Below are positions 3,001-33,048 of a stretch of DNA of 64,000 nt, piece after piece (the first letter of the stretch is position 1; each line of letters begins with the position of its first letter). Source of the stretch: Amoebophrya sp. A120 (lineage: Eukaryota > Protista > Dinoflagellata); assembly GCA_905178155.1 (NCBI GenBank), contig CAJINV010000012.1, forward strand, positions 1,926,492-1,990,491. Reading direction: 5' to 3'. The notes beneath the pieces are model-generated. The model saw nothing but the letters and a program-made list of their open reading frames with translations. It was not told the DNA's origin and ran no database searches. The position numbers and the translations under genes were made by a program.

Positions 3001-5275
3001 CTGTCTGCGTTTTATCGCCCGTTCGTCCTCCGTCGGTGCGCCTTTCGGCTTTTCCTCCTTCTTCGCCTCCTCGGCTGGCGGTTGCGCTGCCTGCGACTTG
3101 TTGGCGGCATCGTCCTTTTTGCTTGCCTTTTTGCGGTATCAAATGCAAATATGTCTGGGTCTGGAAGAGTGTAGCTTGTCATGCTACATCTGGATCGTGG
3201 AAAAATCTGTGTTGCATGATTACCAAAAGAGCAAGAGGTCCATTTTTGAACAAGTTTAGAGGCAGTTTCCTATGCAGGAAAGGCATGATAGAGATCTCCC
3301 AGAACCTGTCATGCTAGGCCGTGCATGCTAGACCGCGCTGGTCATGGAAAACCTGCATGACAAACCTAGCAATCTTCCAGACCCAGACATTTTTGCCTTT
3401 GATATACTGTCTTTTCTCGACTTCTTCGTGTCGGGAGGAGGCTGAAGATTTCGATTTTTTCGTATAAAGTTTGTAGAACACCAATACAACTTCAACTGAT
3501 CTTCATACAACTGACAGACAGCGACCATCTTCCTCGTAGTTCTTGCACACGCTGTAGTTGCAGTGCAGTGCCATCCTCCTCCTCGCAAAGGGGAAGCTCT
3601 TTATTGCAGCTATCATGCTATGCAGAAACAAGAACGAAGTTTCTGCAAATCTTCTAGTACCTACACGAAAAAAACTATACCGCAACAGTCTCCACGGGTT
3701 TCTCTTCGAATATTATCCCTTCTAGTGGGTGTTTATCCTGTGCAAAAGTGTCGCATTCGTATTCATTGCAATCATGCATTACAAATCTGTTTATTAAGGT
3801 AAATCCGCATTACAAATTCTATTTCTCATGCTGCGGAAATTTGTCATGCATTTATACGAGTACGATACTTTTGCACTTCATAGTGTTTTTTCTCCCGAAA
3901 AGTGTAGCCGAACTTCTTTCCCAAGTAGTCCGTATCCAGCTCCTGCTCGTTTGCGATCAAAACTTTTCTCACAATCCGGAAGATGAACCGGGATAAAAAG
4001 TCCGTGCCCTTCTTGTCCAAGTCCCGTAGAGTGAAGGACTCGTGCTCCGCGTTCCGGTATCAAAATGAAAAATCCCCCCACCCCATACTCAAACTAGAAA
4101 TTAGTGATGCAGATTTGTGGCCACAAATCAGCTTTGTCATGCTAGAAGGGAAAAGATGCGGACTGCAGTGCTGGTTGGCGTGGGAAAGCCTTGCATCTTC
4201 AGCATGACAGGGGGCAGCAGGAAGTGGGAAACAGCATGACAAATTGCCTGCAAACGAGGCCACAGCTGCGTCTCTTGGCCTTCTAGCATTACACGTCGAT
4301 TTGTGTACTCAAATACAGCATCACAAATTTCGTTTTCGATATGGGGAGGGGGGATTTTTCCTTTTGATATCCGGATGGCCATCGGTGCGCGCGACGAACC
4401 CGGTCGCCATTCTGACACCGCGGTACCCGGGCCGACTGAGAATTTCAATTTGTGATGGAGGTGGAGGTACTTTTTTCATAAGAAAACCTAAATCTCTTCC
4501 ATGATGCGGCAAAAATAAGCGACGCATGAGATGAAAAAACAAAACACAAACCAAAAGGTCGTCCCTATGTTGTATACATTTCACAGGACTGCTGGTTGGG
4601 CTGTGGGTCTTGGAAGGTGATTTTTTGTCAAATTGCGCGACCACACCGTATCAAACGCAAATGTCTGGGTGTGGAAGGATGCGAGGTTTGCCATGCACGT
4701 TTCGCATGACCCATGATGTCTGTGATGCGTGCCCGAGCATCACAGATTTTTTGAGGGCGTCTTCATGCTTACGCATATTCCGCATGAGAGACTCCCTCTC
4801 CACAAAGCAACAACTGGACTCCTCTTGCTGCTCATGCAATACAGATTTTTTAAGAGTCCGAAGGCAGCATCACAAGTTGCATTTCTCCAGACCCCGACGT
4901 ATTTGCATTTGATACAGCGCTCGTCTCATTGATTTTGTCCACCCGCTGTTGCACGATCGCGTTTTTCAGCGTCAACACGTTCTCGTAGCCACTCACCCGT
5001 ACCCTTTTGCAGAACTCCTGAACGCTGATCCGCTGTTTCTGTTCCGGATCGAGATACACGCGCCAGAACTCGGCCATCTGCATGCCCGCCTTCGCATGCT
5101 TGATGAACGACCGGAACTCGTTAAGGACGTCATTTTCCTGGGTCAGTTCCTCCTCCTCCCCCGTGTTATCCTGGTGCGAGGCCGAGAGGTCGAAGGAAAA
5201 AGACAGGTCCTGCGTCGTCGCGCCTGGCGCCGCAGCGGCGGCTGCCGCGGGGTTTGCAGCTCCGGCGTCGGCCAT
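1..5275 (-). CDS. Large multi-exon hypothetical protein with an EF-hand-like segment; 3' end probably runs off the window
   Basis: Starts MADAGAANP at 5275. ORF pieces join in frame after introner removal (ETS|xVVAQFDKK, RKD|xKKASKK, LRGL|QSRLGEE). LDPEQKQRISVQEF is EF-hand-like. Bases 1-113 remain open on the minus strand. Not every junction was resolved. Confidence 0.65.
114..301. mobile_element. Decayed introner
   Basis: TAT left end, weak TIR, TSD ACGAT/ACTAT; removal keeps the frame (QAIV|KKVEKP). Confidence 0.45.
1108..1260. mobile_element. Introner, family B (TGCAAAAGTATCG TIR)
   Basis: TAT...ATA, TSD CAACC; frame restored. Confidence 0.9.
1859..2110. mobile_element. Introner, family A (TGTCTGGGTCTGGAAG TIR)
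   Basis: TAT...ATA, TSD TTGCG. Confidence 0.9.
2250..2459. mobile_element. Introner, family G (CAAGAAAAAAAC TIR)
   Basis: TAT...ATA, TSD TGATC; homologous to 38132-38326. Confidence 0.9.
2542..2691. mobile_element. Introner, family B
   Basis: TAT...ATA, TSD GCTAC. Confidence 0.9.
2753..2901. mobile_element. Introner, family B
   Basis: TAT...ATA, TSD CTTTT. Confidence 0.9.
3137..3404. mobile_element. Introner, family A
   Basis: TAT...ATA, diverged TSD TGCGG/TACTG; removing element plus 5 nt keeps the frame. Confidence 0.85.
3734..3882. mobile_element. Introner, family B
   Basis: TAT...ATA, TSD GTGTT. Confidence 0.9.
4058..4369. mobile_element. Introner, family D (AAAAATCCCCCC TIR)
   Basis: TAT...ATA, TSD TCCGG. 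Confidence 0.9.
4649..4914. mobile_element. Introner, family A
   Basis: TAT...ATA, TSD CACCG/CAGCG; frame restored. Confidence 0.9.
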
Positions 5276-5942: not shown

Positions 5943-8900
5943 TCAAAAAATCATCGGTGGTTTCGTGACCATCGGATGTGCGATTTTTCGAAATTCCACG
6001 TACTGTCTGGCGATCCTGTTTATCACAATTGATTTCAGACACGTCATGCAGCCGAAGCACTTGGCGTAACTCAGGTATTTTTCCTGCAAAAACCACGGCT
6101 TTTCCATATGCATTGCAAAAGTATCGCACTCGTATGAATGCATTACAGATTTCCTCAGCATGAGAAATGAAATTTGGAATGCGGATTTACATTTAGGAAA
6201 AGATTTGTAATGCTAATGCATGATTGCAATTACTACGAGTACGATACTTTTGCAGAGGATATTCCACCCCCTCAAACCACTGCGCGAGAAAATCCTTCTC
6301 GATTTCTCCAATCGTTTATGACAGTGCACAACTACCCCTACCCCTCATTTGTCATGCAAGTCCCCGAATCCACTCGGTGCCTTATCGCACTGCTTGCATG
6401 ACAAGTTCTGGCACCCCGAAGAGCACTGCAACCCAGTGGAAATTTGTCATGCAGAACTGGCATTCTTGCTGATGCTTGTATTGGCGTTCATGCTATACAA
6501 ATGGGGTGGAGGGGGAGTTGTGCACTGCCATATCGTTTCCTTGGTTGAGTAGTCCGCGGATCTGTCCTTCCAATTCGCCTGCACCCACTGCTGAAAGGTC
6601 GCTTGGTAATCGCTCTGCGTAAAGTCAATTTTCAAATCCGTCTGCATCCGAGTGAACGCAATCGGCTCTACCTGTTTCGTCTTCGGGTTTACGGCGGTTG
6701 TTTTTGGTTCGAATTTCTCACTCACGTCCGTCACCTTCAGCTCTCCGAAGAAGCTGTTTCGGTGCGTGTAGACCCGTTTAGTTGTCGTCCTCCGGTTTTT
6801 CCCGGAGCCAGTCGTGGTGGTCACCGTGTGGTAACAGGCAATCTTCCACTCAAAAGTGACCGTCGCTTCTTGGCAGTCTTTGATCCGCGCCGCGACCTTC
6901 GGAATTCCCACCACGGGCTCGCTTTGCAGCGCCTCCAGGAACCGCATCCGGGAAATGGCTCCGTAGTAGCACCCGGCGCCAAGCAGTGTGCCGATGAGCA
7001 CCATCGGGAGGACGAGGAAGTGCATGCGCACGATCAATTCGTCTAGGACGGTGGAAATCAGGGCCAGGAAAATCAGTCCGCCGATATGGGTATCCTGGGC
7101 AAAAGGATCGCACTCGTAGTGATTGCAGTCATGCATCACAAATTTCCTTCTGAAGGTAAATCCGCATGACAAATTTTATTTCTCATGCTGGGGAAATTTG
7201 TAATGCATTTATACGAGTACGATACTTTGGCAATGCATAATGGAAGAAGTAGCCGATAAGGGCGCAAAGGTCCGTGCCGGTGCATGGTTGTTCATCGGCT
7301 GGGGCGGCAGTCGTGGAACTTGTTTGCTGTTCACCTCCGGAATTAGCAGTAGTGGTGAGTTGCTGCTTCTTGATGCTCACGCCCATCCATTTCGTGGTGT
7401 CGATTTTTGTCTGTGGAAGTCCGGGCTGTTCTACTACTACTGCTTCCTCCTGTGGGGCTGCAAACCGCTGATCCATCATGGCTTGAAAGCCCCCACCAGG
7501 ACCCGCTTGAGGAGCTCCACCGTAATCGAAGACGTTAGCTGGTGTCATCTTCATTACGGCTGGCATTCCCTCCGGATCGTTTGTATGCATTGCAAAAGTA
7601 TCGTACTCGTATAAATGCATTACAAATTTCCTCAGCATGAGAAAGAAAATTTGTAATGCGGATTTGCCTTAAGAACAAGATTTGTAATGCATGATTGCAA
7701 TACGAGTACGATACTTTTGCACAGGATAGTTTGCGTAAGGATTGATGGTGACGAACGCCGGCATGTTCTGCGTAAAAACATCCCCATCCCAGAGTTGTTG
7801 TGCAAATCTGCATGCCGGAAAAGTTTCTCATGCGGAGCCCCATGCGAAGCATTTTGTCGCCGTGTTTTGGAATTTGTGTTGCTTTCATCAGCGTGATGCG
7901 CTAGGTCTGTGATGCTGCTGAACTAGCTAAACAGGACTACACTACGGGGACAAACCTCTTGCCATGCGAAGCAACCAACTCTGGTCGATTTGTGTAGCTG
8001 ATTTTGCAGTATGCGGTGGGGACGTTTTTACTCAGGATACGGCATTTCCGGCCGGCGATTCAGTTCCACCAATGCCCACTGCTCCAGCACCTCCCTATGG
8101 CCTGCTCAAACGTTACAATGATCTCAAGCGTTACAACAGAATCTGGAATTTGTATTGCATGAAAAGCATGAGGAACGCAGAGAGAGTTGAGCTTTTCGCA
8201 ATACAAATTTTGCCGGATTTGAGGTGGGTTTGGGACTCCGAAACTTGTCATGCGCAATCCTATGGGAGTAGGCTAGATCATGCAGCTCTTGCATCACATA
8301 TTTCCAGATTCTATTGTAACAGTTGAGATTGTAACGTCTGAGCGGGTCATACTCCCGGGCGTGCTTTTTCTCCTTGTTCAGGTCGCTACAATCGGCCAAC
8401 ATCAGTTCCATTTGCAGTTTGATCAGCAACTCGTCGATCGAAATAATCCCGTTCTTCTCGATGTCTAGTTTCGTGAAAAGCGTGTCAAACTCCGCATCGG
8501 TTAGTTGCAGATGGTAGAGGAAATACCGCAGCTCCGCCCTGCACAGAACCCCCGACTATGCATTGCAAAAATGTCTGGGTCTGGAAGCTTGTAATGCTGC
8601 GTTGGGAATAGCGAATGCTCTGTAATGCACAGCCAAGCATGAGAAATATCTGCGCTTCAGCTTCTTTGTGTTGCGTTTTTCGCATGACAAACTGCGTTTT
8701 TGCATGACAGGCAAAAGGGTCTCTTCTTGGACACGCATCACAAACTTTTTGGTCATGCCAGACAAGCATGACAGACCTCGCAATCTTCCAGAACCAAACA
8801 TTTTTACATTTGATACCGACCGGTTCACGTCCATTTCTTGTTTGAACAGGTTCCGAAGATCGTCCGCTGTCGCGGAATTCATCTGCACCGCGGAAGACCT

Positions 8901-11800: not shown

Positions 11801-12406
11801 GCTTATGTGAGCTCCCAAGTAGACTGCCACTGCATCGCTTGCGCTTGCTTTCCCAGCCAATGCTCTCTCCCACTCTCACAACAACTCTTCTCTCTACGCA
11901 GGAAGCGCGAGGACGAGACTTTCGCTCCCAAGGGAGCAAGTTTTGATCGAACTGAACAACAGAGGACATCGTATGACGAGCACGTACTAGTGCGAAGCTA
12001 CACGCGAAGTGTCGCGCTAGAAGAGTTCCTTCACGTAAGAAGGCGGCGATTGCTCTTCTCGGTTTCTACAGCGTCCGCGAGGACGCTTCCTTCTTGCCGC
12101 ACTGATGACGCCCTTCCTTCTTGGAATAAATCTGTACTGGCCATCATACAATGGAATGTCTATCATCCAGGTCTGCAATGATCATACATTGGAGCAGGTT
12201 CCAGGGCCACTTGAGGTCACGGCTGTATCCTTCCATATAACAGCTACGAGGACAATCTCCAAAGCATCTTCATCTTTTTTTACAAGTTCATCATCAGACT
12301 TCAATTCTACAACTAAATTATGTTCTCATACGTCGTCGTCGTCGTCGTCGTCGTGTGAACAAGTAGTGACACATCTCTGCAACTGCAGCTGCAACTCCTG
12401 TCTTTT

Positions 12407-15400
12407 TCAGTTCAACTGCTGCACCTTCAAGTGCAGATCGCGCACCTTTGCAATCGCACTCGCACCATACCGCTGTAGCCATTCGTTTGGTTTCGAGCTG
12501 TCCGTTGGAAGCGGCAGCTCGGCGACAAGGAGTTGGTTTAGCTGCAACCGGGCCTCGGCGTACCTGATAATGTAATTTCAGCACAACTTCTGCTGTTACG
12601 AAGTTCGCTTGATGCTGAATAAACACGCATGACAGGAGGAGGTACCGCGATGCAAATCAATGTAGCGTTCGATAAGCACCAGAGTCATCCGATGTAGTAC
12701 GACGACAAGAACATTTATTCTACCAGTTCAGAGCCTCCACCGAATTCTGCATGGAACTCGCGTTCTGCGGCGTCGCTGTGTTGTGTTGCATCGTCGTCTA
12801 TGCAATACAAATTTCCCGTACATGATGTGCATCACAAATTGCCCCAATTTGAAGTGTAACACTTGTCATGCTCAACTAGCATCGCAGTCAAGTTTTGTCA
12901 TGCAGGCACCGCAGTTGTACGTCGTGTACGGGAAATTTACTGTGGATATCGTCTGGGCCTCACGTAACTGCTCCACTTGCTCCCGAATCTCGCTCATTTT
13001 CGTTTCTGCTAAAGCAACCCCGTCACGAACGCCCTCGCCTAGCATCCGCTTCATCTCTTGTTCTTTCAGGGCGAGGGTCTTACCTTTAGAGATACAGCAT
13101 CGTACATATTTCACTTTCGAGTGTGTCAATCATGACTCCAAAAAATCATCATATCTGTCATGCAGCGGGACATCAAACGGTTTAAAAAGCACAAATCAAA
13201 GACAAAAAAGCATCGATCCAAGTTATGAAATATGTACGTATTTCCGAAAACTGCTCGGCAACTTTCAATTTCATCTGTTCCTGTGTATTGTACATCTCCC
13301 GCTGTTTTCTGTCCCACGACTGCGCTAAATGAGAGTGCCCAACTCCCCCTCCCCCTCATTTGTAATGCAAAGTACCAAATAATTCAAACCTTGCTCGTAA
13401 GCACTGCTCGCAGATTTGTCATGCGAAAGCCCCTTTTCTGCTGTTGCTTGTGTTGCTGTTCATGCAATACAAATGAGGGGGAGGGGGTGGAGTTGTGCAC
13501 TCTCATACGCTATGCCATTCAGCTCATTAACCCGCTCGCGCAACTCGCCGGAAAGGGATTGGACTTTGGACTGGAGCAGTGGGTAGCTGGACAGTGGATT
13601 TGGACGTTCATCATTTTCTTCGTTGATGCAAGACACCCACATGCACATGCTGTCTCTACTCCACGTATGTGAAACCCAACATGTTGTACTAGCTCGTCGC
13701 AAACTTCCAGTGGCTAATCCTCGACGCAAATCGACGATGAAAGAAAACTATCAAAAAGTACGAAAAATCAAATACGCTTTCTTCACTGACAGCACTTCGT
13801 GTCCCTTGTGCATCCCGTGTATTACGCACTCGCTGCAAACGCACTTGCATATGAAAGCCTCAGGTTGGAAATCCTCAAAGTGGAAATGATTTGTAATGCA
13901 AAAAAACCACTCGCACTCCAGTTGAAGCGCCGTTTGTAGTCGGCACATGAAAAATTTCCCGGGCACTTAAAGCATGTCTGTCATGCAGGTTAGGCAACGG
14001 GGTGTCCTTCTCTCGTGCTAGGCAGCACTCCAATTCTTCACCCCTAGCAGGACAATAGTCGGCCTCCGTTGCGTCCTCTGCAATACAGTCTTTTTTGCTT
14101 CGCATTTCATGCGTCACAAATTATTTCCACTTTGAGGATTTCCATTCTGAGGCTTTCATATTGCACTCGCAATCCAGACAGAAGTAGCTGACAGGCTCCT
14201 CCGGATGGGCGGGGCAAAACGTGGTCACCGTGTGAATCCCAGTGCTGTTTGGCGGCTTCACGTTTGACGTCGAGGAGGTTGCCGGTCCGGTGCCGACGTA
14301 AGGCTGTTGCTGAGCCGTAGCTTGTTTTGTCGCGAGATCTTGGCCGGGGGCGAGTTTGGTGTTCCGTGCCGTGTCCCATTTGTAGTCGTTCTGCTGTAGT
14401 AAATCCACCGGTGACATCCTGGGTATGGGTGTGTCAGGATTGAAATCGACAAAGTTGGAATAATTTGTCATGCATAAAATGCAAGGCGCGACGTGACTGT
14501 CTTGCCGGGTTGGCAAGTGAGGCCGACTGTCAGCCTGTTTCTGGTTTGGGATAAAGCTGCTAAAGTAGCATGACAAAGGATGCCTTCTGTCGCAAAACAG
14601 CATGACAAACTGGATTTCGATGACGTTGAAATTTGTCATGCGCTTCTTGGAAATTCGGCTTCCTACTGGTATCGGTTTTATGCATCACAAATTTTTCAAC
14701 TTTGTCCATTTCAATCCTGACAATTCCATACTGGGTAGACCAGACATAAGCGTCTCGACGGAGTGCGGGCTGAAATCCGTACTGGGAGGGAGATATCAAA
14801 TGTAAAAATGTCTGGGTCTGGAAGATTTCTAGATTTGTCATGCATATTTTCCATCACCCATGATGTCTGTGATGCATGCCGTAGCATCACAGATCGTTAG
14901 AGCGCTTCCTCATGCCTATTCCGCATGACAAATGCCATCTCCGCGGAGCACAAAGTCTACTCCTCTTACTGGTCATGCAATACAAATCTTTTTCGAATCC
15001 AGAGACAGCATCACAAGTTTAGATTCTTCCAGACCCAGACATTTTTACATTTGATAGGAGACCTGGCGCGGTTTTTGGTTTTAGTTGGCAGGATCGGTCG
15101 CAGTCATGGATACCAAAACGTCATGCCGTCCTACTATAGAAATGCAAAGCAAATTATAGAACTTTGAATCTATCAATCATACCACCTCGCAACCTCGCTA
15201 CGGGAGGTGCCGCAGAAGTGACATCAGGTGTCTTGGCGACAAACTTTCCCAGCTGCTTCTTGGTAGCTGGTGGGAGCTGCGTCACCAAATGGACCGCCGA
15301 GTCAGCGTCAACTGGATAAATTTGATTTTTTTCGGTATAGGGACGCAGTGGTCAACATTTTGCATTCGACGACGTCACAACACGCACAAGCACGAGCTGT

Positions 15401-15654
15401 AGCAAGGTGATTTTTTGTACGCGCTGTGCAAAAAGGGGTCAAAATCCTATAATACCATTCGTCACGGCTCCGCAGACTTGGCATTCCAAGTCTACATTTT
15501 CCTTCGTGTCCCCGCTGTACCCCTGGCAATACAGCTCTTTCCCCGCACACTGCAAGCAAAGATTGTGGCTGCAAACCAGAATCAACGCGTCTTCTAGCGG
15601 CTCTTTACACTTGGCGCACTCAAATTGCTGTGATACTCCTCCGGGCGGCTGCAT
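12407..15654 (-). CDS. RING finger - B-box - coiled-coil (TRIM-like) protein
   Basis: RING CAKCKEPLEDALILVCSHNLCLQC...CQVC. The B-box CPAHPEEPVSYFCLDCEC|KCVCSECVIHGMHKGH is rebuilt across an introner. A coiled coil follows. Last exon ends ...LHLKVQQLN* at 12407. Confidence 0.85.
12799..12948. mobile_element. Introner, family F (AAATTTCCCGTAC TIR)
   Basis: TAT...ATA, TSD TCGTC. Confidence 0.9.
13084..13237 (-). other. Canonical GT-AG intron with an internal inverted repeat
   Basis: Minus strand GTACATAT...CTAAAG. Removal gives in-frame FSEIRKTLALKEQE. Confidence 0.7.
13328..13507. mobile_element. Introner, family E
   Basis: AAT...ATA, TSD CGCTA; frame restored. Confidence 0.88.
13850..14160. 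mobile_element. Introner, family H (TATGAAAGCCTCAG TIR), splits the B-box
   Basis: TAT...ATA, TSD TTGCA; rebuilds CLDCEC|KCVCSEC. Confidence 0.92.
14424..14730. mobile_element. Introner, family C (GTCAGG.TTGAAATCG TIR)
   Basis: TAT...ATA, TSD CTGGG. Confidence 0.9.
14794..15056. mobile_element. Introner, family A
   Basis: TAT...ATA, TSD GGAGA; near-identical to 40775-41037. Confidence 0.92.
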
Positions 15655-16262
15655 GGTTGCGTTTGGCTTCTTTGCTGCAGTGTGTGCACCAGATGCAGCT
15701 TGTATTGCGGTCTTTCTATATGGCAAAAATAAATGGAATTGTGCTGGCCTCGGTCCGAGTTGATTTCTTTTCCAACTCGAAAAAAGACCTTTGAGCTTAG
15801 AAGAATGAGTCTGCTTTTTGGAGGTGTATTGTCTGACATAATGATGATCTCTCTTCAGCGTACTAGTTTTTGCAGCTCTCATTTGCTCCTCTCAGAAAAC
15901 CATGGGTTGTGACATATGTGCAGAAGTAGAGGAGAACCAAGTAGAAGACGGAGACGAAAAATTCGACTCTGAAGAAGAATAACACAAAAACTACACACAC
16001 GCTTTACAAAAGACGGGACAAGAATGTGACCAAATACGGGAGTGATCACGACCCCGGAGGCAATGCAATCCTTGATATCAAATTCACGAAAAAACTTCAT
16101 TATTCATTCTCAAAGGAACAAGGCCGTGAAGATGATTTAGAAGAACAATAAATAGGTGTTTCTTTCTGCATCTTTAGGTAGGTCATTATAGACAACTTCA
16201 CAAAAACACATGAATGGGTCGTGTATCACGAAAAACGAATCGTGCTTAAAATCGAAACATGA

Positions 16263-17497
16263 GGTAGCGGAGGCCACATTTATTTGTTCAAACACAACTG
16301 ATCTTTAAAAATACTTCTTCTTTTTTTTTTCAAACAAACAGCAGCAGTAGTATGAAAATGTTTTTCCTCGTCCCCGGTCCTCTTCCTAATCCTCTATCTC
16401 AAGTCCACAAAGCAACGTCGGGGTGGCCCCCAGACGGAGGACTTCGGTACGAGCGAACGAACAGAGGAAGATGTATGTGAAAGGAGGAGGAAAACCGCAC
16501 TTCCAACAGTGGCCAACGGGGCCGCCGGGGCAAGGTAAAGGCCAACCGGTGCAGCAGCCAGGTCCTCCTAACCAGCCCACACCTCTCCAACCGTTCCACC
16601 AGAGCCAGACCAACCAGTTCGGCCAGCCGCTGCAACAGAACCTCAACTCCCCCCCGCAACAACAGTGCTTCGGCCCGCCTGCTTTGCAGCAATATCAACA
16701 AGGACCAGGCAACGCCAATGGAGCTGCAGTTGCAGGACCATGGCAGACGCGCCCAAAGGTAAAAGGGGCCACAAGAGTAGGAGACCTCAACGTCCAGTCG
16801 TTGAACAAAAGCGACCCCCCGGGGGCAGCGACGAAAGGAGCGGCGCTGCGGGAGTGGGCCGACGCAAACGAGGTGGACGTGATCCACCTGAAGGAGACAT
16901 GGGCCGACGAAGCCTATGTCTGTTGGTTTGCAACGGAGTACCTACCGGAGTTCGAGGTGGCGGACGTGCAGGCAGCGCAGGAGTCTGCAGGAGGAGGGGG
17001 CGCGTCGCTGGTGCGCAAAGGCACAAAAGGCGTGACCAAGTCCGGCACGGGCTGCCGGGTCACGGTAGAAGGAGCAAGCAGGAACACAGCGGTCACCTCG
17101 GTGACCCTGCACGGAGAGGACGGCCTCCCCTGGGCCGTGTCGGCGCAGGTGTACACACCGCCCGGCACACGCACCGGACCTGCCAAAGGTCGAGGTGCCG
17201 CCCGGGGTCGAGGTGTCCACTCAGTGGGACGCAAACCACTCATCCTCCGTGCCGAGGCAGAAGCAGGTCCAGGACTTCGCGGATGCCAGCGAGTTGCTGC
17301 CCTACGTGCCAGCACTGTGGACACGCCCACAGTCGCGCACCTCGCCAGACGTCACGCTGTTGAGTTCGGGGCTATTCGTACGCGCGAGTGAAGTCGAGGA
17401 AGGGCCGTCGCTTTTCCTCGTCGCAGGAGACCACTGCGCGTCGGTAGCGGAGGCCACATTTTGTTCAAACACAACTGATCTTTAAAAATACTTCTTC
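16263..17497. repeat. About 55-58 bp direct repeat pair (16263-16320 and 17443-17497)
   Basis: GGTAGCGGAGGCCACATTT(ATT)TGTTCAAACACAACTGATCTTTAAAAATACTTCTTC occurs on both sides of the LINE fragment. Confidence 0.9.
16321..17442 (+). mobile_element. Non-LTR retrotransposon remnant (APE/EEP endonuclease fragment)
   Basis: ORF 16423-17391 has GDLNVQSL, VDVIHLKETW, GGGASLVRK and VYTPP, the motif order of LINE APE endonucleases. GC-rich, no RT, flanked by a direct repeat of about 55 bp. Confidence 0.75.
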
Positions 17498-17734
17498 AAG
17501 TAGTTTTGTCGTTTCTGACTGTCGTGAAAGAAAGTCCGGCCTTGACGCCGGAAAAACATAAAAACGATAAAATTTTTGATATAAAAGGCTGGGCTGTACA
17601 ACGGACTACATAATTGTAGCAACTACCGACAGTAGTTGGATTATTATTTGAAGTTCGTTTTACATCCAGAAAAATTTATTTTTCGGTCGCTTCATTAGAT
17701 TTGATGAAACAGTACGATCTACTTTTCTTCATTT

Positions 17735-19014: not shown

Positions 19015-22000
19015 CTACAGCAAAACAGGAGTATACTTGTCCGAAATTTTGTGCACCAAATCGGTGTAGTTGTAGGCGTCAAAAGTCTGGTCGAACGCGT
19101 GCAGCAGGAATTTTTCGTGCAATAATTTCGCTAACAATTTCAAATATTCCGTGTATCTGGTGATGTTACTTTCATCCAGGAGAAGAGCTCGCCTCGCCGG
19201 ATTCCGATTCGTCCAGTTTGGGTCAATGTCAAATGTCAAAATGTCTGGGTCTGGAAGGATGCAACTTGTCATGCTAAATCTCAAGCATGCAAAAATCTGT
19301 GTTGCATGATTACCAAAAGTCGTCCAGTTTTGACCAAGTCGGAAAGGAGTTTGTCATGGAGGATAGGCATGAGAGAGATCGCACAGAATCTGTCATGCTA
19401 GGTCCTGCATTGCAGACCTCATGGGTCATGGAAAAGCTGCATGACAAGTCGCGCATTCTTCCAGACCCAGACATTTTTGCATTTGATAGTCAAAATTTTG
19501 TCGATTCTGGGCGTCAACTTGGGCTATTAGTTCATCCAGGCCGACATTATCGAGGTCGGCAATGTAGTTTTGTGCCTCTGCCCGTCGCCGTGCTTCTGCT
19601 TTTACTTGGTGTTGATCATTGTTTTCGTTCAACACCAAGAATAACTCAACAATGTCGTCGCTGATAGAATGGTTCAAACGGCCGAAAAGATTTATGCGGT
19701 CAAGGAGACCATGAGGGTTAGTTTCGGAATAACTTGGGCTTGTTTCAGTTTCTGAAGTGGATGCTGTTGTTTCACCTGTTGCAGATACTGCGGTTGCCGG
19801 CGAGGAAGTGGAAATGGTACTATCGTCGTGCAGTAATTTTTCCTCCAGAAGCTGCGATGGAGCTGTCTGGTTGGTACTTTTCGTGCTTGCAGTTTGAGTT
19901 TGTTGTTCAGGATTTCGATTTTCACCTCGTCCTGTTGTAGTGCTCTCCTTGTCTTTGTCTGAAGTAGGGTGAGGGTCCACACCTTGAAGAGGACCATCAA
20001 CCTGACCACCGTTGTCCTCCGCTGGCAGCGCCGCCCCACGACCGGCACCACCGCTGCTAGGTGTAGTCCCAGCCATCATTGTGCGCTGGTCCTCCTCGAC
20101 TATGGTTCTCTTCTGGTGCTCCCCGTAAGATACACGAGCTTGCTCCAACACACGGTTGACGTTGGCTTCGAAAGAAAGACGGGCAAAAGTTGCCGCATCG
20201 ATGTGGAGATCGGGTTGTGCTTCTGAAATAGTTCCGGTACTGAAATTTCTTGGTTGATGTTGTTCTTCAGTTGTCGCTTGTTCACTTCTTGGTTGTTCGA
20301 CACTGTCGACCGCGTCGTTGTTGACGCGAAGATTTTTACTTTCTTCTCCCAGCGCAGGAGCAGCCGCTTCTGGTCGTGCTGCATCAGGAAGGGCAGGAAA
20401 ATGACCTCCCGGAGTGAATGTGGTAGAAATGGTTTCATCATGTTCTTGCGGCGAATGAAACAATTGCGGCGGTGCCGTGGGGGCAGCAGGGGCTGCCACG
20501 GCCAAGGGAACTGCTGCTGGGGCTGCCGGCGCGGCGGGGAAGGGGAAGCTAGAGTTGTTGTAGTTCCTATTGATAGTGCTGTAGTTCATCGGTGGTTGTA
20601 TCATATTCATCAAGGATGCGCTACTAGTGGTAGCGCCTTGCTGTGCATTGATTTCATCGGGTAGATAAGTGTTTGGAAACAAATCGATCGGATTTAGGGC
20701 TGTATTGGGTCCCGTCAAGGGGAATGGCCCAGCAGCAGCTGGGGCTTGAGCTTCAGGAATTGAAAACCCGGAAAAGCTGAAACTACTGTGCTGCTCATTT
20801 GAAAAACCGGCCCCCCTGCGCCCTCCGAGGAGTTCCGTGAGCAGAATTTGTCCCGGAGTCCTGGCAGAAGGTGCCGGTCTGGTGACGAGATCGCTGTTGT
20901 TCGTAGGAAAAAAAGATGTATTCGTAGTGGTCGCAGAAGCGGGAGGTCCTTGTTCTACTACTGCTGGTCCCAGATGAGGCACAGCAGTCGAAGATGGTGC
21001 ATCAGGACTTTGTGTATTCTGATCGTCCTGCAGGAGGTCGCCGTCCTGTGCGGTGGTTGTACTAGCATCCACTCCATCTTCCCGATCATTTCGGCTAGTA
21101 AGAACCGTAGATGAAGCTGCTGCTGCGCTTTGCTCATGATGTTCTTCTTCTTGTTCCTCCTCTTGCAGTTGTTGTATATCACGACCATAATCGTTGCTTG
21201 TACTTGGGCTGCTCGTAGTTCCCCGAAGATGACGACCTTGGGAATCTACTTCATCAGCACGAGTGGTCGTGGTGCTCCCTTGAACGCGCCGCGCCCGTGC
21301 GAGCGTCGCGGCGGTGCTACCACTGTCCCTCTTCAATCTTGCTAGTTGTTGCGCTCTTTCTTCCCAAGTTGCCCCCGGTCGAAATAATGAGCCGAGATCT
21401 GCGTGCTCATTCGGTGGTAGCTCCTGTGGTCCACCCCTGCCGGTGCGTGCCGCCAGGGCCTCGTCTTCCACCTGGTGTACCAGAGTCGACGGCCCTACCG
21501 GTCCTACTGATGTTCCTCCTACTTCAGGCAGCACAGCCGGGGCAGGTGGGGACGCAGCTCTGCTTGCAATAGAATTTGTCGCCGGTGGTCTACTGGTGTG
21601 TTCCAAATCCGGATGACGATCCCAGCACTCTGCATTCTGATCACGTTGCAGCTCGAGCCGCTCTTCCTCCTGTGCAGGAGCACCTTGTTCGTGTTCCTGA
21701 ATTCTGGTATAATTGTCAGCGGAAGCAGCTGCTGGATTTTCTGTTTCCACTTCAACATGCACAAGTACACGATCATCATCATCATCGCTGCCTACCCCGC
21801 TCCCCCGCCGAACAAGAGCCTGGGCATCAGCACGACTGCTGTTGGACGCCCGAAAGAACCTCGCTAGTGCACCTGGTTGCAACATCCAAGGGACGCCAGG
21901 AGCTGCAGTTCTCCTCGCATTATTTACGAAGGAGCGCCGCGCCCCTGCTCGTCTAGGACGATTATATCGCGTTCGTAAGTACCTTCGCCAAGCGCTATTT

Positions 22001-25000
22001 TCCGGTGCACGTAGATCAGTCGCGTCATTCGTTCTGACGCCGCGCGCCCCTGCTTGTGCTATTCTCAGGATGGCCGCGCGACGTCTCTTATCCTGTGCAA
22101 AAGTATCGCACTCGTTGTACTAATTGCAGTGATGCATGACAAATTTCCTTTCCAAGGTAAAACAGCATGACAAATTCAATTTTTCATGCTGAGAAAATTT
22201 GTAGTGCAATTTAGACTTGTACGATGGTTTTGCAATTCATATCTCTCTGTACCGTTTGGCGTGCCGGTATCTCCCGCCTGTAACTCCGCCAGCAGCTCGT
22301 GCACTACGCCGCTGGCTGGCGCCCCGCCGCTACGGAGGTCCTCGTCTCCTTCCTCTTGCGACAATTGTTCGTCCTGTTCCCCCCGCAGATTGGAGGCCAC
22401 TGCATGAAGTAGATCTTCCTCATCACTAAAAGGCGGCGCAGCTTCTGCTTCACTGTCATCGTCCCCCGACCGATCTTCAGGCTCGAGCTGGTCCGGCGGG
22501 AGCCATGGTCGGAAAAAATACTCCTCCGCGGTGTCATTCCAGCGTCGCGGGGGCATTGGCTCTCGCTGTCCTCGTTGAAGGGCGGCGAAACGGTTTTCAG
22601 TACCTGATAAAGTAAACCGTGGTTTGGTTTCCTTGAATGAGGACAGATCGGCGAAGTCTAGTCCCCCGGTCAAGATCAATCTACGCAGGGGGCACCACGA
22701 GCCAAAAACAAATTTACGTTACATGTCTTACAGTCCTCGTGCAGCTTGCTTCATCTTCATTGCGAGGATGTGCGTGTAAAATTACATAGCATGCAGCTGC
22801 TGCGTCAAAGTCTTTCCACATTTTTGTCCGCAAGCAAGCATTTTTTCTTCCGAGACCTGCATTGAACAAGCGGGACTGCTGTAATAAGTAAAGGATACCT
22901 GTTCGTCGGCCAGCACTTCGCGAAGCTCCTGCAGCGGAACCCTCAACTCCCCGGCTTCCCGACGGGACCGGGAGCGAAAACTGGTGGTAAAGTGGGAATT
23001 GAATAACTGACGCATCAGGAAGATCGGGTTGTAAGGTGGGCATTGATAAGAAGCTGGGCGGGGGGCTCGAGGACCTTTCCGGCCCGCGAGCGGCACTACC
23101 CTCGGGCGGGCTTGTGGAGTCCGGTGCTGGCGGCCAAGGCAATGAAGGTGTGCTCCGCAGAAGTACCGGCGGCACGGTATAGCTTTTATGTATTCTTCGT
23201 TTTCTGATAGAGGTCAATGGCGTTATTTCGAAGGAGCAGCAAGCTTCGCCTTGATATGATTATGATGGTGAAATAAATCTTCACTATTCCTCCCTGTGTA
23301 CTAAAAAAACCACGTAAATCAAAATATCCAAATACTTTTGCATGAGTTGTGCCTGTGCCCCTACGGCAGTGCTTCGATGCAATCCCCCTTCCTGTTCATC
23401 ACGAATTGTCGACGCCCGGTACGGGTGCGTAACGCGATCAGGCACGAACTCGGGCGCGTCTGGGTTCAAAATGGACGAAATCGGGGCCGTGACGGTGGAA
23501 GGGGCTAGAGAAGGACGACTGCTAGTGGCCGGCTCGGCCTATCCAAGAGAAAATGTAAATGACAGGCAGGGCATATTTTTATTTTGTAATGCCAAAATAG
23601 TAAACACGCAAGAAAATCTCTCTCGTGTGTCCTCTTAAGCGGAATGCTATATGGTCATCTTTCTGTTAGTCATCTAGGTCTGTATTTACAACTATGCCCT
23701 CCCACCTGCTTTTTTTCTCTGTGATACAGCCGTTTCGGACAAAATTCGAAGGTGTGCTGTTCCACCTATAGGCGAGTACTCAAGAACATCTCGGTGCCCT
23801 GAAATTACTGCTCCCCGTGGTCGTTCTCGCGCATCGGCATTTTGTTCGTTTGAAGCGGTACCGATGAAGGGGTGCCACGGAATGGGAGCCAATTCTTGTG
23901 CCGAAGGAGCAGGAGTAGGGTTGCTCATGGACGAAGATGAAGAAGAAGATGCTGTTGCTGTGCTTGAAGTAGGACGATTGCGATTGTCATCAACAGCATT
24001 CATCATCATCTCACCGAAGTGCTGTCGTTGTGTACTATCTTCAAACCTGCCTACCCCAGCATCGCTGGGGAGTTGCGCGGAAGCCGCAGGCTGCTCAACA
24101 TCTTCCGGGATCGTCCAAGAATTCCAAGGTCTCGGTCTGTAGCCTCCGCTTTCGCCAGTGTTCTGGAGGTCGTGGCGCATCCACGAGTACCATTCACTCC
24201 AAGTAGACAAACCATAACCATTAGTATTGTTCTCGGCCGCCAAAGAAGCTCCTGATCTTGCTGTTCCCCCTTGAGTAGTTTCGGCAGCGTCTTCGTCATC
24301 GTTGTTCTCGGCGTCGTTTAATGCTATCCCATTCATGGCCCTATTAGCATTAGTCCCATTTCTTCTGCGCCGGATTAATACTTCGCGGCTTCCGGCACGG
24401 ATATTGGCGGCGTTGCGGCTGTTGTTTCCCCTGTCGTTTCCGCCCTGCTCTCCACCTGTGGCAGCATTTACTCTGGTGCTGGCCGCGCCAGTTGATGTAG
24501 TATCTCCTCTTATCCTGATTAAAACCGTACCCACACCATAGTGTAGTTGGGATCTCTGCAACACAGATCCAGGAGTTTTGAACGCCACGCATGACAAGTT
24601 ACAGCTCGCAGTGTAGTGCAGGTTAAGAAGGACAGCCGCATGACAAATCGAGATACGGATCCTCTTTACAGCATTACAAATTCCAAAACACGACAGGAAA
24701 TGCCCATCATAGGGGTCCGCATCACAAATGTTCTTGTCATTGCAAATCTGCATGACAACTCTGGGGTGGGGATGTTTTTACATAGGATACCTCTGCGCGT
24801 CCTCCAACGCTGCAGCACTGCTATCGACAGAAAAAAGACGAAGACCCAAACCACGACATCCAATTTTGCATGCGAAACATGCATGCGAAGTCACTGTGCT
24901 TGTCATGCAAAAAACGAATGGAGATGATGTTGTTGTTGGGTCATCTTGTCTTCTGTGGATAACTGCGTCCCGGTTGCCACTGGAGTTCCACCAGTCGGCT

Positions 25001-28000
25001 GCCGTGGCTGTTCTCTCGGTTGCATCCTGTGCAAAAGTATCGCACTCGTAATAATTGCAAATATGCATGACGAATGTTTTTCCTGAGGGAAAACAGCATG
25101 ACAAATTCCACTTTCCTTCTTGCCAAAATTTGTGACGCAATTAATACTAGTACGATGCTTTTGCAATGCATAGGTGGTCTCAGTTTGGTTTTCCTGATTC
25201 TCTTCGCCAGGACGTACACCTGGCGCACCGCCTTCTGGTACTCTTTCAGGTCGCTGTGCATCATGTAGTCCAGCAGCTCCTGCTACTCTTTCCCACCACG
25301 CAGGCAGTTCGCCTGCATTAGCATTACGCCGATCTGCTCTGTTTCTGCGCTGCCTGGAAGACGTGCCTGCTGTTGATGTCGTGCCAGGGCGATTGTTCCG
25401 AGCCGGAGAACGACCGTTATTTTCCTGCTCTTGAGTATGGAAGCGTCAGGTTTGAAATCGTCAAAGTTGAAATAATTTGTAATGCATAAAATGCGATACA
25501 AAAAGCGACTCTATTGCAGAGGACCCACGGGAGGCAGATTATAGTCCTGGTAAGGGTCAAAAGTTGGACTGCTAACAAGCATGCCAGAGGGCAGCTCTTT
25601 TGCCCTAAACCGCATGACAGACTCGCTTCCAGGACCGGGAAAATTTGTCATGCACCGACTACAAACTGTAGGTCCAACTGGTATCCGTTTGATGCATGAC
25701 AAATCATTTCAACTTTGACGATTTCAATCCTGACGTTCCCATATTGAGGGAGCACGCGGTAAAAATCATCAAGGTCGACGGGGGCGGCCCTTCTTGCTGC
25801 CTCTATCAAATGTAAAAATGTCTGGGTCTGGAAGATTCTGAGCCTTGTCATGCACGTTTTGCAGGGGTCATGATGTCTGTGATGCATGCCCTAGCATCAC
25901 AGACTTTTTGAGGGCTTCGCGATGCCTATTCCGCATGACAAATGTCCTCTCCGCGTAGCCAAAATTGCATTCCCTTTGCTGCTCATGCAATACAGATTTT
26001 TTTGGAATCCAAATGCAGCGTCACAAGTTTGGATTCTTCCAGACCCAGACATTTTTACAGTTGATAGCCTCAGCTTGGCGGCGTTCTCGCTCTCGTTGAC
26101 GATCTCGCCGCCGTTGCAGGGTGTTTGCCATAATCTCACGCAGTTGGTCCATCGTCATTCCCTCAAGATCAGCGGCAGTCATCGTAGTACTGGACCGTCT
26201 TGAAGATGTGGTGCTAGTATTACCCCGCTCTACTACTTCCTGGCCGCTTTGATGTTCGTCCACCGGAAGTTCTTCTTCCACAACGTCTTCTGCCTCGCGA
26301 AGACGACCGAGGGATGAATCATGCGCACGCGACGTGTTGGATCGTCCCGAAGCCAATCTCTCCCAGGCGGCGTTGTTCCTCCTCCTCCTCCTTGCCGCAT
26401 CTTCTTCTTCGCCGGCGTGGTCAACACGCCAGGTACTAGAATTTGTGCTTCCCGCAGCGTGTTCATCAGTCTGAGTGCCAGCACGACGAGAACCATCATT
26501 GATCCAAGCACTTCTAGTACGGGGTTGATCCTGATTACCTTCGCGGCGGGCGGGACTCTGCGCCGACGACGGCCCAACATTTTCGTTGTTGTTCTCCCGG
26601 CTGAACATAATATTTTTTGCAGAGTAGAAATCAGCTTTGATATTGAAGCACTGAATATCAAGGAAAAGAAACAGCTACAGCATCTACTTCTACACAACAC
26701 AAATTGACTTCGCATGAGAAGGACAGATGTCCTCTCGCACAAGAAATCGGTCATGTTGAAAAGAAGCAATTACGCAGATCCTCCCGCCCCTGGAGGGAAG
26801 GGAAGTCGTGATAAGGGCCTGGCGCCCAGATGCGCTACCTACCTGAGGTAGACGCGTCAAGTCTCGCAAACTAAGCGGCAGCACGCCGCTGCTCCTGGTG
26901 AGTAATGTAGGGCGGCGCCCGCGGTCCAGCGCGCGCCCCCTCGACCCTGGTGGGCGTTCTCTTCTTGAGGACGAGCCCAGCTCTGGAAGCCGGTGCGCCC
27001 TGTACTATGCTCCTGGCGAGTGAGACGGCGGAGGGCCGTCCGCGTGCTTAACCAGAGCAGCACAGCGCCACACCGCGCCCGACCAGTCCGAGGCGGGCCC
27101 TTTAGTGTGTTGCCGCGTCGTGTGCAAGGAGGCCCGGCATGGCGTGCCCCTCCCGGCGGCCTTGTGCCGTATTGGTGGTTGGAGGCGCGCCGTCGTAAGC
27201 CCTACTGCCCCACGTAGTGCGCAGCACGCAGCCGGCGGCACTTGCCGAAGATTGGCGAAAACGGTGGGGCCTGCGCTATTCTGGAAAGCCTGGGCTGGCA
27301 CCTTACCCCCCTGGCGGGGCCGCAAGACCGTTCCCGGGAGGCGGCGCAAGAGGCGGCGGTGGCTCCGCCTGCGTGAGCCGCCACCGCCACAGCTTGCGCC
27401 CTACATTCTGCCCGTCCGGCAATTGCCGGATGTCCGTGGAGCCGCTCTGGAAGCGCACCTCCCTACGCACGTAGCGTAATTATTCTGTGTTAGTGCGCCC
27501 GGTGTGCACCCTCTGAATAATGCTGCTATAAGGAGCGAGTGCTCGAAGCAGGGCAGCACAGCGCGCCCATTTCCCTTCATGCACGTTGCTCTCCTTCTGC
27601 TTCCACGACTTGAGGCCGTGTGTCGCGTTGAAGGGTTTTGGCACGTCCTGCTCCCACAACCGTGTTGTCAGACGGATCATCGCAAGTATAGCCTGGTCAA
27701 AGAGCGAGCACCGCATCTGTTTGAAACAAGAGCGGGTCAAATACAATACAATACAATTACGCAGATCCATCCGGTATGGTTCTGCTTTATTTCTATGAAT
27801 AGCAAAAATAACATTCTCATTTTTAAGCAAGCAACTTCACCTTCTTTTTCTTTCTCGGATAGTAGCAAGTAGTACCTAGAGCTGGATGCGGCGTTATTTG
27901 TTCCTGTTCGGCTCCGAAGGTCGTTGTGAGCCAGCTCGTTCCTGTTCCATGTAGTGGTCTCGCTATCCCAAATGTACTCGCGCGGAGCGCCGGCTACAAC

Positions 28001-31000
28001 AGCACCTTGATGAACAACGGAAGATGCTGCAGCCATTAAACTCCGGCGATCTTGTATTACAATGAAAAATGCCCCCACCCCCGAACTTGAAAGCATTTGT
28101 ATTGCAAACCTTTCCAAATGAAACATTTGTCCTCTTGCATGTATCAGCATCACAGATTTCCGATCGTGAATAGCAAAAATTTGTATTGCAAAAGATCCCA
28201 GCAAGAGCGGCGCTTGTCATGCAAGCGATGCGAAACACGACTAGAATCTGCATCAGAAAGATTCATTACTCCTTTCATGCATGACAAAAAGTTTTCATTT
28301 GGAAACTTCGCATCACAAATTTTTGCAACTTTGGGGGTGGGGGGCACTTTTCACTGTAATATCTTGGTTCTGGGTAAACCTCCATGCCCGACGCGCCCAG
28401 TCCAGCTCTAGCTCTCGCTCCCTTTGCCTCTCCGCCTCTAGAACTCGCTGTTGGCGCTCCCGAACTGGCGCGGCAAGGAGGCGAGCATCTATCAAAAGGA
28501 AAAATCCCCCCTCCCCACATCAAAACGAAATTTCTGATGCTGGATTTGAGTACACAAATCAGGTTTGTATTGCGGGAAAGCATTGCAGTCAGATCCCCAG
28601 GCTAGGTAGGGGCGTACGCGTCTAGTTGTTCAGCATGGCAAGCGGCTCCCCTTTAGGCCCAACAGCATGACAAATCGCTTCCATAGTGGGGCGGAAGCTT
28701 CTCCTTCTGCCCTTGTCTTCTTGCAATACAAATGTGATTTGCGACCTCAAATCAGCAACACAAATTTGCGGAAACATACCTTTTCGATATGGGGAGGGGG
28801 GATTTTTGCTTTTGATAGCATCTCTGTTCCGCCTCACGGCCGCCGCATCGTCGCCATGCTCCCCCTATGGATTGCAAAAATGTCTGGGTCTGGAAGATTC
28901 TAAACTTGTAATGCTGTCTCTGGATTCTAAAAAAATTTGTATTGCATGACCAGCAAGAGGACTGCAGTTCGTGCTACGCGGAAAGGGCATTTCTCATGCG
29001 GTAGAGGCATCGCAAAGTCCTCGAAAAATCTGTGATGCTAGGGCATGCATCACAGACATCATGGATCATTCAAAATATGCATGACAAACCTCTCAATCTT
29101 CCAGACCCAGACATTTTTACATTTGATACCCCCGCGTTGTGCTCTAGTAGCTGTGCGCGAAGCCGGTCCACCACTCCAACTTGCGCATTGGCCGCGTCTG
29201 CACCAAATTGTTGGAAATAAATATCATAGAGTCCATTTCTTGCAACATTGTGGTTGTCAAACTGGTTAAGAATATTTTGTTCCGGAAATTGAGGGCAGCT
29301 GCATTTGCGGCTTCGGGAGTAGTAGCCCAGAGAGTGCCGATTTGGGTTGGTGGTCGAATTATTTGCCGCAGTGGTTCTTGCGTTTGTCGTCGTACTACTT
29401 GAAGATGTAGTTCCTGCTCTGCCAGTCCCTCTACCTCTGCGGAGCTCGTGCGCAGGAGTAAAGTACTCTTCCCCGCATTCGTAGCAGAACTGGTAGCCGC
29501 ACGTGCAGGTCATGTGGTTGCATCCGGTTGTGCGCTCCACCCACGCATCGCAGCCTCCACACTTCTTCCAGCCATTGCGTTCGCAAGTCTCCCTGACCTC
29601 TCGCTCCATGCGCTCTGCATTCACCCGCGCCGCCTCACATGTCTGGCCCGGATGGGCCGCTCGTTTGCACAACATACACCAGTTTTCGCCGCAGTGAAGG
29701 CACGGAAGCGCTAAGTTGTTTTGGGAAGATGATAGGGACGTTGATGCCCCTGTTGTGGTACTCGTACTATCGTTGTTTCCATCTAGTACTTCATCTTCTG
29801 CGACCACAGCTGCACTACCTTCCTCCTCGGGTTCTAGTACTTTGTGCCTCTCGTGACGCGGAGCGAGCTCGCCAGATGCGGTACTGCTGGTAGCTTCTCC
29901 GTCACTGTTGATATTGGTCGTCGTCGTGGTGTTTCTTCGCTCGTTGAGGTTGTGGTTGACGTTTTCTTCATGGGTAAAAATTTCCACCTCCGCTACGGTT
30001 TCGAGCGGGCTCCTCAGAGGCAACGCCAAGGCTGAATCCGACTGATTTACATAGCTGTTCTTCTCCACGACCATGTCGTCCAGGTCGTGCGGCTCGCCAA
30101 GTTCTTGCGTCGTAATTTTCCTTTTCTTCATGTTTAGGTCACCACGAGAACCCCCACCACCACTACTGCTCGACGAGCTGGAGCTGGAGCTCGACGCTGG
30201 CCTCAGAGGAAAAGATGTGGATGGGTAGTTGTGGTTGTCTTCGGTTTCTAGTACGACCCGGCTATTCGAAATTTGCCACGAGCTACTGCTGCTAGAAGAG
30301 CTGCTGCTAGAAGAACTGCTACTAGAAGAAGACCTTGCGTTCGAAGAAGAAGGGTTTGAGGTAGATGAAGTCTGCTCGGAGTTGCAGATCCCTGTCACAG
30401 GAGAACCACTCCAGCCGGCTTCTTGTTTTGTGGAAAGAAGAACACTCTGACTATCATCGTCTTCTACCACAGGTCTGCAAATCCAGTCGTCTTCCTCTAC
30501 AATTTCATTTCCCTCGCCATCAAGCACCACCTCTAACTTCTTTCCGTCGATGATAAACTTGCCGCAGTTTGGGTTGGGACAGAAAATCTTCTCCTCCGCG
30601 ACCGCTTCTTCAAATTTGTCCATGTAATTCAGAAACTCCGCCGGACTTAAACACTCCCGAACGATCTCCGGCTTCACAAACTGTTTGTGATGTCCCGCCC
30701 CCGGGCAGCATCGGGCGGGGAAGACAACGGGGTCAGCGAAAGACCGCTTCGTATGAATTGCAAAAGTATCGTATTCGTATGCAAGTCTTGCATCACAAAT
30801 TTTTTTCTGAAGGCAAATCAGCATTACAAATTTCATCTCTCATACTGAGGAAATTTGGAATGCATTTATACGAGTATCACACGGCTAAACGCTTCACTTT
30901 TAAAAACTTCACTTGCTAAAAAAAAAATTTTTTTTAGTGAGGTTTGATGCTGTTGCTTACAGCATCGGCAGCTACGTGCCGACGGCGGCGATTGCGGCGC

Positions 31001-32868: not shown

Positions 32869-33048
32869 GCCTGGGCTGCTGCTCCTGAAAGAACCAACCG
32901 GGGGGTCTCGGTCGTGCCGGGGCGCTGGGGGGCGGGTTCCGGATCCAGCTCGCTCTTCCCGTTCATCTTCATCCTCAGACGAGAATGTGGTGCTGTTATC
33001 ACTATCGGTCGCAGATGACGAGTACCAAATATAGCCGCCGGGGCGGGG

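Follow-up and report, generated by a model that had tools for sequence, protein, structure and literature searches.

A short motif at helical-turn spacing in the introners of Amoebophrya sp. A120, and what may read it

The dinoflagellate Amoebophrya sp. A120 carries introners, which Farhat et al. (2021, PMC7789003) counted as 29,850 repeated non-canonical introns in 1,954 families, leaving their mobiliser open. The inverted repeats of these elements begin with TAT, run through seven looser bases and then A's, and are bordered by direct repeats of 3-5 nt (PMC7789003); their removal from RNA is of a non-GT-AG kind (PMC7789003; Gozashti et al. 2025, PMC12130899). No U1 was found in A120 and no transposase reported for it, and general mobilisation by transposases was argued against there (PMC7789003). 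In supplement 8 of PMC12130899 the A120 families are mostly terminal inverted repeat (TIR) elements with no superfamily assigned there, and one TIR family of A120 (family 38) has Copia-like frames, described as Ginger-like or Copia-integrase-like. Here we describe a motif of about 10 bp held at helical-turn spacing inside the introners of a 64,000-nucleotide stretch of A120 (assembly GCA_905178155.1, contig CAJINV010000012.1, positions 1,926,492 to 1,990,491 of the forward strand; hereafter the window, in whose numbering coordinates are given), with the 307-bp element at 14424-14730 as the leading example.

Tn7 and Mu make 5-bp duplications and carry arrays of sites that face the same direction, and Ginger elements have TGT...ACA termini, a pattern from which the TAT...ATA ends of the introners depart. 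Among hAT elements, Hermes binds short subterminal repeats that occur in both orientations and unequally at the two ends and that need an AT-rich follow-on (PMC10368747), and hAT5 elements make 5-bp duplications (PMC12730594). In a Tn7-like CRISPR-associated transposon (CAST) the transposase sites are spaced in step with the helical pitch, with a host protein, IHF, bound between them (PMC10201428).

The introner motif is like the subterminal repeats of hAT elements (Hermes, Ac, Tol2; PMC10368747) in being short, in lying inward of the TIR, in both orientations and unequally at the two ends, and in having an AT-rich stretch next to it, and the 5-bp target duplication is like that of hAT5 (PMC12730594). 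It is unlike them in being about 10 bp and not 4 bp long, in being common to families with unlike TIRs and in being held at a helical phase; the introners also differ from hAT elements in that they act as introns and have no hAT transposase linked to them. By analogy, the introners may work like hAT-type miniature inverted-repeat transposable elements with subterminal repeats. With the ends of Tn7/CAST and Mu they share several (here predicted) sites per end, unequal ends, helical-pitch spacing and a fixed distance from tip to first site (PMC10201428). The introner ends, however, are TAT...ATA and not TG...CA (for the TG requirement see PMC10201428), their sites face both ways, the first site lies 31-54 bp in rather than about 8, the host is a eukaryote and no TnsB-like gene was present in the frames scanned. 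A comparison with Tn7/Mu-type elements made in an earlier note on this DNA is therefore apt for the way of working (5-bp duplication, spaced sites) and not for membership (TAT...ATA ends, mixed site orientation). Family 38 of A120 is comparable as a TIR element with integrase-like frames that could make short duplications (PMC12130899).

The elements as such are already published, while the motif and its spacing were not found in the literature searched (open papers, figures being outside the search). The internal motif, the spacing rule and the uniform 5-bp duplication are not described in the covered text of the A120 accounts (PMC7789003, PMC12130899): the motif is absent from the main and supplement text of PMC7789003, whose main text has no mention of subterminal repeats or branch points (its figures, such as the logos of Fig. 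S25, lay outside the search), and 12 of the 14 supplements of PMC12130899 mention no subterminal repeat or binding site, nor does its covered main text. Nothing on the motif was found in the covered text of PMC9860276, PMC11282704 and PMC6004678.

The motif in the elements of the window and of a second lineage

Elements were called by TAT...ATA ends and a 5-bp target duplication, which gave 55, and seven were added by hand; the resulting 62 elements (14,544 bases) fall into 14-20 groups, depending on the threshold. The duplication is exact in 47 of them, with one mismatch in 12 and two in 3. The tip reads T in 122, A in 121 and T in 124 of the 124 ends, a near-TAT having been asked for by the caller, and A occupies end positions 11-13 in 93, 100 and 114 ends (family C has CAGG there instead). 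A 420-residue frame of the window is 97% covered at 100% identity by a protein of Amoebophrya sp. A120, and family lengths near 149, 209, 260 and 305 bp match A120 rows of supplement 8 (PMC12130899). In organism, in the repeat of TAT, seven bases and A's, in the direct repeats and in non-GT-AG removal, the window elements are the published introners of A120.

Our analysis uncovered a strong enrichment of the motif in these elements. In its strict form, GCAT(C/G/T)ACAAA, it has 100 matches in the window against 0.81 +/- 0.96 expected from 100 shuffles, with G (52), T (35), C (13) and never A as its fifth base; the extended form, (T/A)GCAT(G/T/C)ACAAA(T), ends in an A/T run. Ninety-nine copies lie in the 62 elements (6.8 per kb) and one in the remaining 49,456 bases (0.02 per kb), whereas shuffled element sequences hold 0.2 matches on average and 2 at most (200 shuffles). 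The rarity in exons and intergenic DNA that the earlier note had stated is thus borne out, and the motif survives the first of its two named refutations, a lack of enrichment over background. A weight matrix finds 286 sites above 8 bits within elements and 30 outside, a count that is partly circular since the matrix was trained on the window elements, the strict count being less so. The sole strict copy outside elements lies in a GT-AG intron at about 63445-63592, read by eye. This intron and those at 12561-12720 and 13081-13234 hold one motif copy each, the last also with 13-bp inverted arms, and such introns are possibly old elements turned canonical.

The element at 14424-14730 had been credited with about five copies and has exactly five strict ones, and all of the other intervals then named as carrying the motif do so: family E element 2250-2459 (one strict copy; four sites above 8 bits), family F element 4058-4369 (three; six sites, with three site pairs 32 bp apart), family G element 6317-6532 (two; three sites), family I element 12799-12948 (two; four sites), the 307-bp element 28055-28361 (two; seven sites) and 44050-44135, where two strict copies are present but the second ends one base further, at 44136. 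Other parts of that description need trimming. It is not a general rule that each carries several copies, as two of the 62 (30875-31641 and 39672-39868) have no site above 7 bits; copies occur in both orientations in 14424-14730, but family H elements 7764-8039 and 24511-24789 have sites on a single strand only; and the families are not unrelated throughout, as some, such as B and D, have common end sequences.

Scanning metagenomes with a motif pair gave 143 stretches, corresponding to 139 loci, and most of the 76 listed by name came from assembly JACKZZ01; nine loci of other records were dropped before element calling. These loci share the window families, with best full-length matches 74-97% identical, and we take their genome as a related, distinct lineage since a protein encoded there shares 89% identity with its A120 orthologue. 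There, 392 more elements were called, giving with the window 454 elements in 42 clusters, 18 of which have at least two members. An interior site above 11 bits is present in 446 of the 454, eight being without one. Strict copies in the second-lineage loci number 616 in 87.7 kb of elements against 130 in 300.9 kb outside, figures in which overlaps are unmerged, element calling is incomplete and the loci are motif-chosen.

The motif is also better kept than its surroundings, which answers the second refutation named in the earlier note. When the motif was called in one sequence of a pair and identity was read in the other, the core was 0.72-1.00 identical and the 7-nt flanks 0.52-0.70, with the core above the flanks in nine of nine family alignments. 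The GC-rich part GCAT.AC is best kept (0.87-0.99 per column), while the free fifth base (0.22-0.78) does no better than the flanks in most alignments.

The element ends were also looked at. The published terminal consensus (TAT, seven bases, AAA) was considered as a motif copy in itself; this is true in 17 of 124 ends, a hint and no rule. At end positions 4-10, families draw on one small set of variants, and a copy often has unlike variants at its left and right ends (match 0.66, shuffled 0.64), pointing to an exchange of ends and to a weak requirement for pairing at these positions.

Spacing, loss and a possible binder of the motif

The sites keep to distances that track the DNA helix. For 35 of the 36 family ends, the distance from the end to the first site is 31-35, 37, 39-46 or 51-54 bp (79 bp for the remaining one), and the end-to-first-site phase reaches R 0.71 at 10.4 bp against 0.16 at 16.4 bp (0 of 20000 draws). 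Same-strand pairs 31-33 bp apart occur in 8 of 14 window family representatives where 2.0 are expected (0 of 5000 random placements); of the opposite-strand pairs, plus-minus ones gather at 31-33 bp and minus-plus ones at 47-51 bp. A free scan from 8 to 14 bp found its best period at 10.4 bp with a strand offset of 1.5 bp, a result that 0 of 300 permutations reached, whether the 30-34 bp gaps were kept or dropped. In ten families absent from the window, with parameters fixed beforehand and seven likely mis-called or compound singletons dropped, R was 0.26 (105 of 5000), or 0.19 without the 30-34 bp gaps (223 of 5000). Within families the gaps are well kept, those of 31-33 bp only slightly more so than the rest (21 of 315 against 71 of 548 off mode).

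Trees of the ten largest families (371 copies) place 361 motif-core changes on tips and 62 on internal branches, against 3093 and 1677 for spacers (Fisher p 1e-19). Since core changes fall mostly on tips, copies with a damaged motif exist and seldom leave descendants, as expected of a site needed to transpose. TIR positions 11-28 have the same pattern as the motif (680 tip and 138 internal changes; p 0.33). The motif tip rate of 3.1% per site is about half of the 5.8% mismatch between duplication copies, which are identical at insertion, although this yardstick is biased low by the element caller and by coding constraint.

On balance we judge it slightly more probable than otherwise that the motif is the double-stranded DNA binding site of one transposase that moves all these introner families. 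The binder itself is inferred, no transposase having turned up in the small share of sequence scanned. A putative multimeric transposase would take the TAT tip into its catalytic site and place its DNA-binding domains on motif copies along one face of the helix, about 32, 42 or 52 bp in and then often 31-33 bp further on, much like Hermes on its subterminal repeats. TAT ends and a phased array would then be all that a sequence needs in order to be moved, so that many unlike families could run on one machine; after insertion the motif would be mostly released from constraint, and RNA removal would depend on the element ends and not on the motif. As to the kind of enzyme, a hAT5-like transposase is our first guess and an integrase-like (Ginger-type) one our second.

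Several results weigh against this transposase reading, apart from the circularity of the weight matrix. The second-lineage loci were chosen by a motif pair at 31-32 bp, and the period signal out of sample is modest. Site-to-site distances fit a period of 16.4 bp nearly as well as 10.4 bp (0.41 vs 0.44), and 10.4 bp is preferred because the end-to-first-site distances separate the two; leaving out the 30-34 bp gaps makes the same-strand 10.4-bp signal weak, and some gaps (18, 39 and 48-49 bp) do not fit the phase. The tip rate is 3.1% for the motif and 8.3% for spacers, the latter including change in unsampled lineages, and some constraint on the motif after insertion is possible; in addition, spacer columns shape the trees, which inflates the tip-to-internal contrast. 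No transposase family was found in the window and second-genome frames scanned and no element ends in viral contigs, and PMC7789003 reports no transposase in A120. Finally, the motif-less 767-bp element 30875-31641 has TAT...ATA ends, 65-bp arms and a clean 5-bp duplication, which leaves two options: moving does not require the motif, or identical ends are also made by a second enzyme. It is nested in a family A element (30752-31668), and such nesting of a motif-less element inside another is a prediction of a role in splicing. No other copies of it occur among the second-lineage loci examined.

The search for the binder covered 20 frames of the window and 104 of the second-genome loci, together a small share of two genomes, and Pfam returned no transposase or integrase family in them; neither a hAT partner (BED finger plus hAT transposase with the same ends) nor a TnsB/MuA-type transposase was among these 124 frames. 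Two family-end patterns had 0 matches in viral contigs. The motif pair did hit 29 loci of viral contigs, none with element ends by eye and mostly with 2-3 strict copies in 3-6 kb, and we put these down to chance or to repeats in coding sequence. As possible autonomous elements we considered seven long TAT...ATA candidates of 489-2459 bp, and the five that were read are short elements with nested inserts.

The most serious alternative, which we consider unlikely but by no means negligible, is that a host DNA-binding or DNA-bending protein needed for transposition binds the motif, like IHF in some Tn7-like elements, and that the transposase reads the ends only. Conservation, spacing, tips and strand, that is, all of the DNA-level results, fit it equally, and it has the IHF precedent (PMC10201428) as well as the A/T run that ends the motif. 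TIR positions 11-28 are unlike between families and share the tip pattern of the motif, so that several transposases with one host factor are possible. However, a single strict copy in the 49.5 kb beyond the elements, a span that takes in gene starts and intergenic DNA, would be odd for a factor with a day job.

The element at 14424-14730 and a possible role in RNA removal

The element at 14424-14730 is a 307-bp non-autonomous TIR element of family C (about 308 bp) with TAT...ATA ends, inserted in a minus-strand gene. It lies between 5-bp target duplication copies at 14419-14423 and 14731-14735 (plus strand), and its left TIR arm (14423-14465, plus strand) is 84% complementary to its partner at 14689-14731. 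The five strict copies are at 14464-14473 (minus), the first site from the left end at position 41; 14568-14577 (plus); 14600-14609 (plus), 32 bp on; 14632-14641 (minus), a further 32 bp on; and 14682-14691 (plus), the first site from the right end. A degenerate copy at 14496-14505 (minus), 32 bp inward of the first site, scores below 8 bits here, and its place is above threshold in other family C members (the element at 34246, and one of locus L036 in the second lineage). The whole element folds as a long hairpin with its motif copies paired (z -9.4).

Transcript evidence comes from contigs of runs X3 and X4, one sample and RNA by guess. These contigs contain a joint 14418->14731, at which 312 nt are skipped, corresponding to the element and one duplication copy. 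At 12799-12948, 13328-13507 (a shortened family G element), 13850-14160 (a family C element with partly decayed sites and one strict copy) and 14424-14730 they skip 155, 185, 316 and 312 nt, in each case five bases more than the element itself. The fifth joint (388 nt; window 14793-15182) comprises family B element 14794-15056, five bases and a 120-nt GT-AG intron (15063-15182). One base and the duplication separate this element from the intron, and the element is removed six bases from a canonical acceptor. Over 453 elements, the frame test gave clear calls for removal of the element plus 5 nt in 123 cases, plus 4 in 18 and plus 3 in 15. Run X9 (2026, RNA) gave 8 partly fitting reads only, and runs X3-X6 gave no joints in window 21900-31900, a stretch that includes the element at 24511 and the nested 917-bp element. 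Nine X3/X4 joints together restore one open frame in the host gene (approximately 12400-15800, minus strand). Its product has a RING finger, a match that is weak (E 3e-4, below the Pfam cut-off), together with a Cys/His cluster that is B-box-like and a tail that is coiled-coil-like, both by eye.

The exact removal of these elements at borders other than GT-AG, in an organism where U1 was not found (PMC7789003), raises the possibility that the motif has a part in this removal: it might act in the pre-mRNA like a branch point or as a site for a protein, draw the hairpin tighter by internal pairing, or mark the DNA for reading while it is transcribed. With its final T-N-A-C the core resembles a branch-point consensus, the hairpin of 14424-14730 pairs its motif copies, two of the four GT-AG introns among the X3/X4 joints have one weak motif copy each, and the motif-less element is nested where its own splicing is not needed. 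We keep this explanation, as a rather improbable one, because of that nesting and because the splicing mechanism is open.

The strand tests argue against it. In family H element 7764-8039 all interior sites are on the minus (transcribed-sense) strand and in 24511-24789 all six are on the plus (antisense) strand; the two elements are oppositely oriented, and removal of either with 5 nt opens the frame and restores about 200 codons on each side. A gene strand was inferred for 15 family H copies; sense sites above 11 bits are absent from 7 of these, and antisense sites from 5. With gene strands inferred from frames and not from RNA, no orientation bias of the motif relative to the gene strand was found in 14 families. 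An antisense bias in 17 clear calls (14 vs 3) was gone with 221 strand-assigned elements, and the seven family H copies that have no sense site do not fit a sense-strand branch point near the 3' end. Inverted copies show no covariation at the free base (418 of 1061 vs 407.5 shuffled), and the outermost inverted pairs show none either (118 of 268 vs 133), whereas at TIR positions 11-28 the match is a little higher inside a copy (0.81) than from copy to copy (0.78). Element 13850-14160 is cleanly removed with one strict copy left, motif changes pile up on tips and the spacing tracks the DNA helix. A version in which the motif is a DNA-level mark is compatible with the strand tests.

Our motif tests point to DNA and not RNA: transcription can run along either strand, covariation is lacking between inverted copies, and changes in the motif sit on tips. 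Of the earlier proposal that one shared factor binds the motif, spacing and the tip-internal pattern thus favour a binder of double-stranded DNA that is needed for transposition, and a single-stranded RNA signal is disfavoured. A bolder idea, doubtful but attractive, joins the two roles: one putative protein, not a recognisable transposase, would read the phased motif lattice on the DNA, move the tens of thousands of introners and mark them for exact removal from RNA.

It is very unlikely that there is no specific binder and that the phased motif with its A/T run only gives the DNA a shape (a bend, or nucleosome placement or exclusion) that aids excision. The 10.4-bp phasing, the A/T run after the core and the nucleosome links of other introners (PMC9860276) would suit such a role, but the strong conservation of GCAT.AC with one free middle base looks base-specific. 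A neutral origin of the motif, as a relic of shared ancestry or of internal 32-bp duplications, is hardly credible, despite the common ends of some families and the 16 nt after the tandem copies of family A, which are 0.42 alike, because the core is kept amid diverging flanks and changes little on internal branches, and because the tandem copies of the seven other families lack common flanks (0.18-0.34 alike vs 0.29 across families), so that simple duplication does not explain the arrays.

Further elements and the meaning of the motif

Some elements of both lineages are composite. The copies at 44050 and 44127 face each other in a 593-bp fold-back element (43834-44426) with 216-bp arms; the arms (98%) hold a second TAT-type end without a duplication of its own. 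In the second lineage, nested inserts starting near a motif copy are present at L038 505-1608, L073 3415-4562, L058 3622-4243 and L068 8803-9291; the inserts of L038 and L073 are the same (87% over 543 bp) although their host element families differ. At L090 476-2934 a 2.2-kb insert lies near the end of a family B element; it has a frame of 415 residues without a Pfam match and is possibly a truncated retroelement. Repeats of other kinds are present in the window: 33022-33755 is a 734-bp repeat without a strict motif, 87% identical to L065 8299-9032; 16400-17450, 26700-27750 and 50250-51650 are GC-rich and resemble retroelement debris, with no Pfam match in the frames scanned; and about 17443-17498 repeats 16263-16320.

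A motif and a fixed spacing rule common to the families would turn many families into one system with one likely partner. The motif belongs to a known kind of signal, yet it makes the open question of the mobiliser directly testable, as it offers a bait for pull-down, a genome signature for the autonomous element and a basis for the design of mini-elements. The signal for moving (the motif) would be separate from the signal for splicing (likely the ends). If one protein did both move and mark the introners, any sequence with TAT ends and a phased array could become a mobile, self-removing intron in a cell without U1. More generally, the motif suggests how transposon families may diversify their TIRs and interiors and yet stay mobile.

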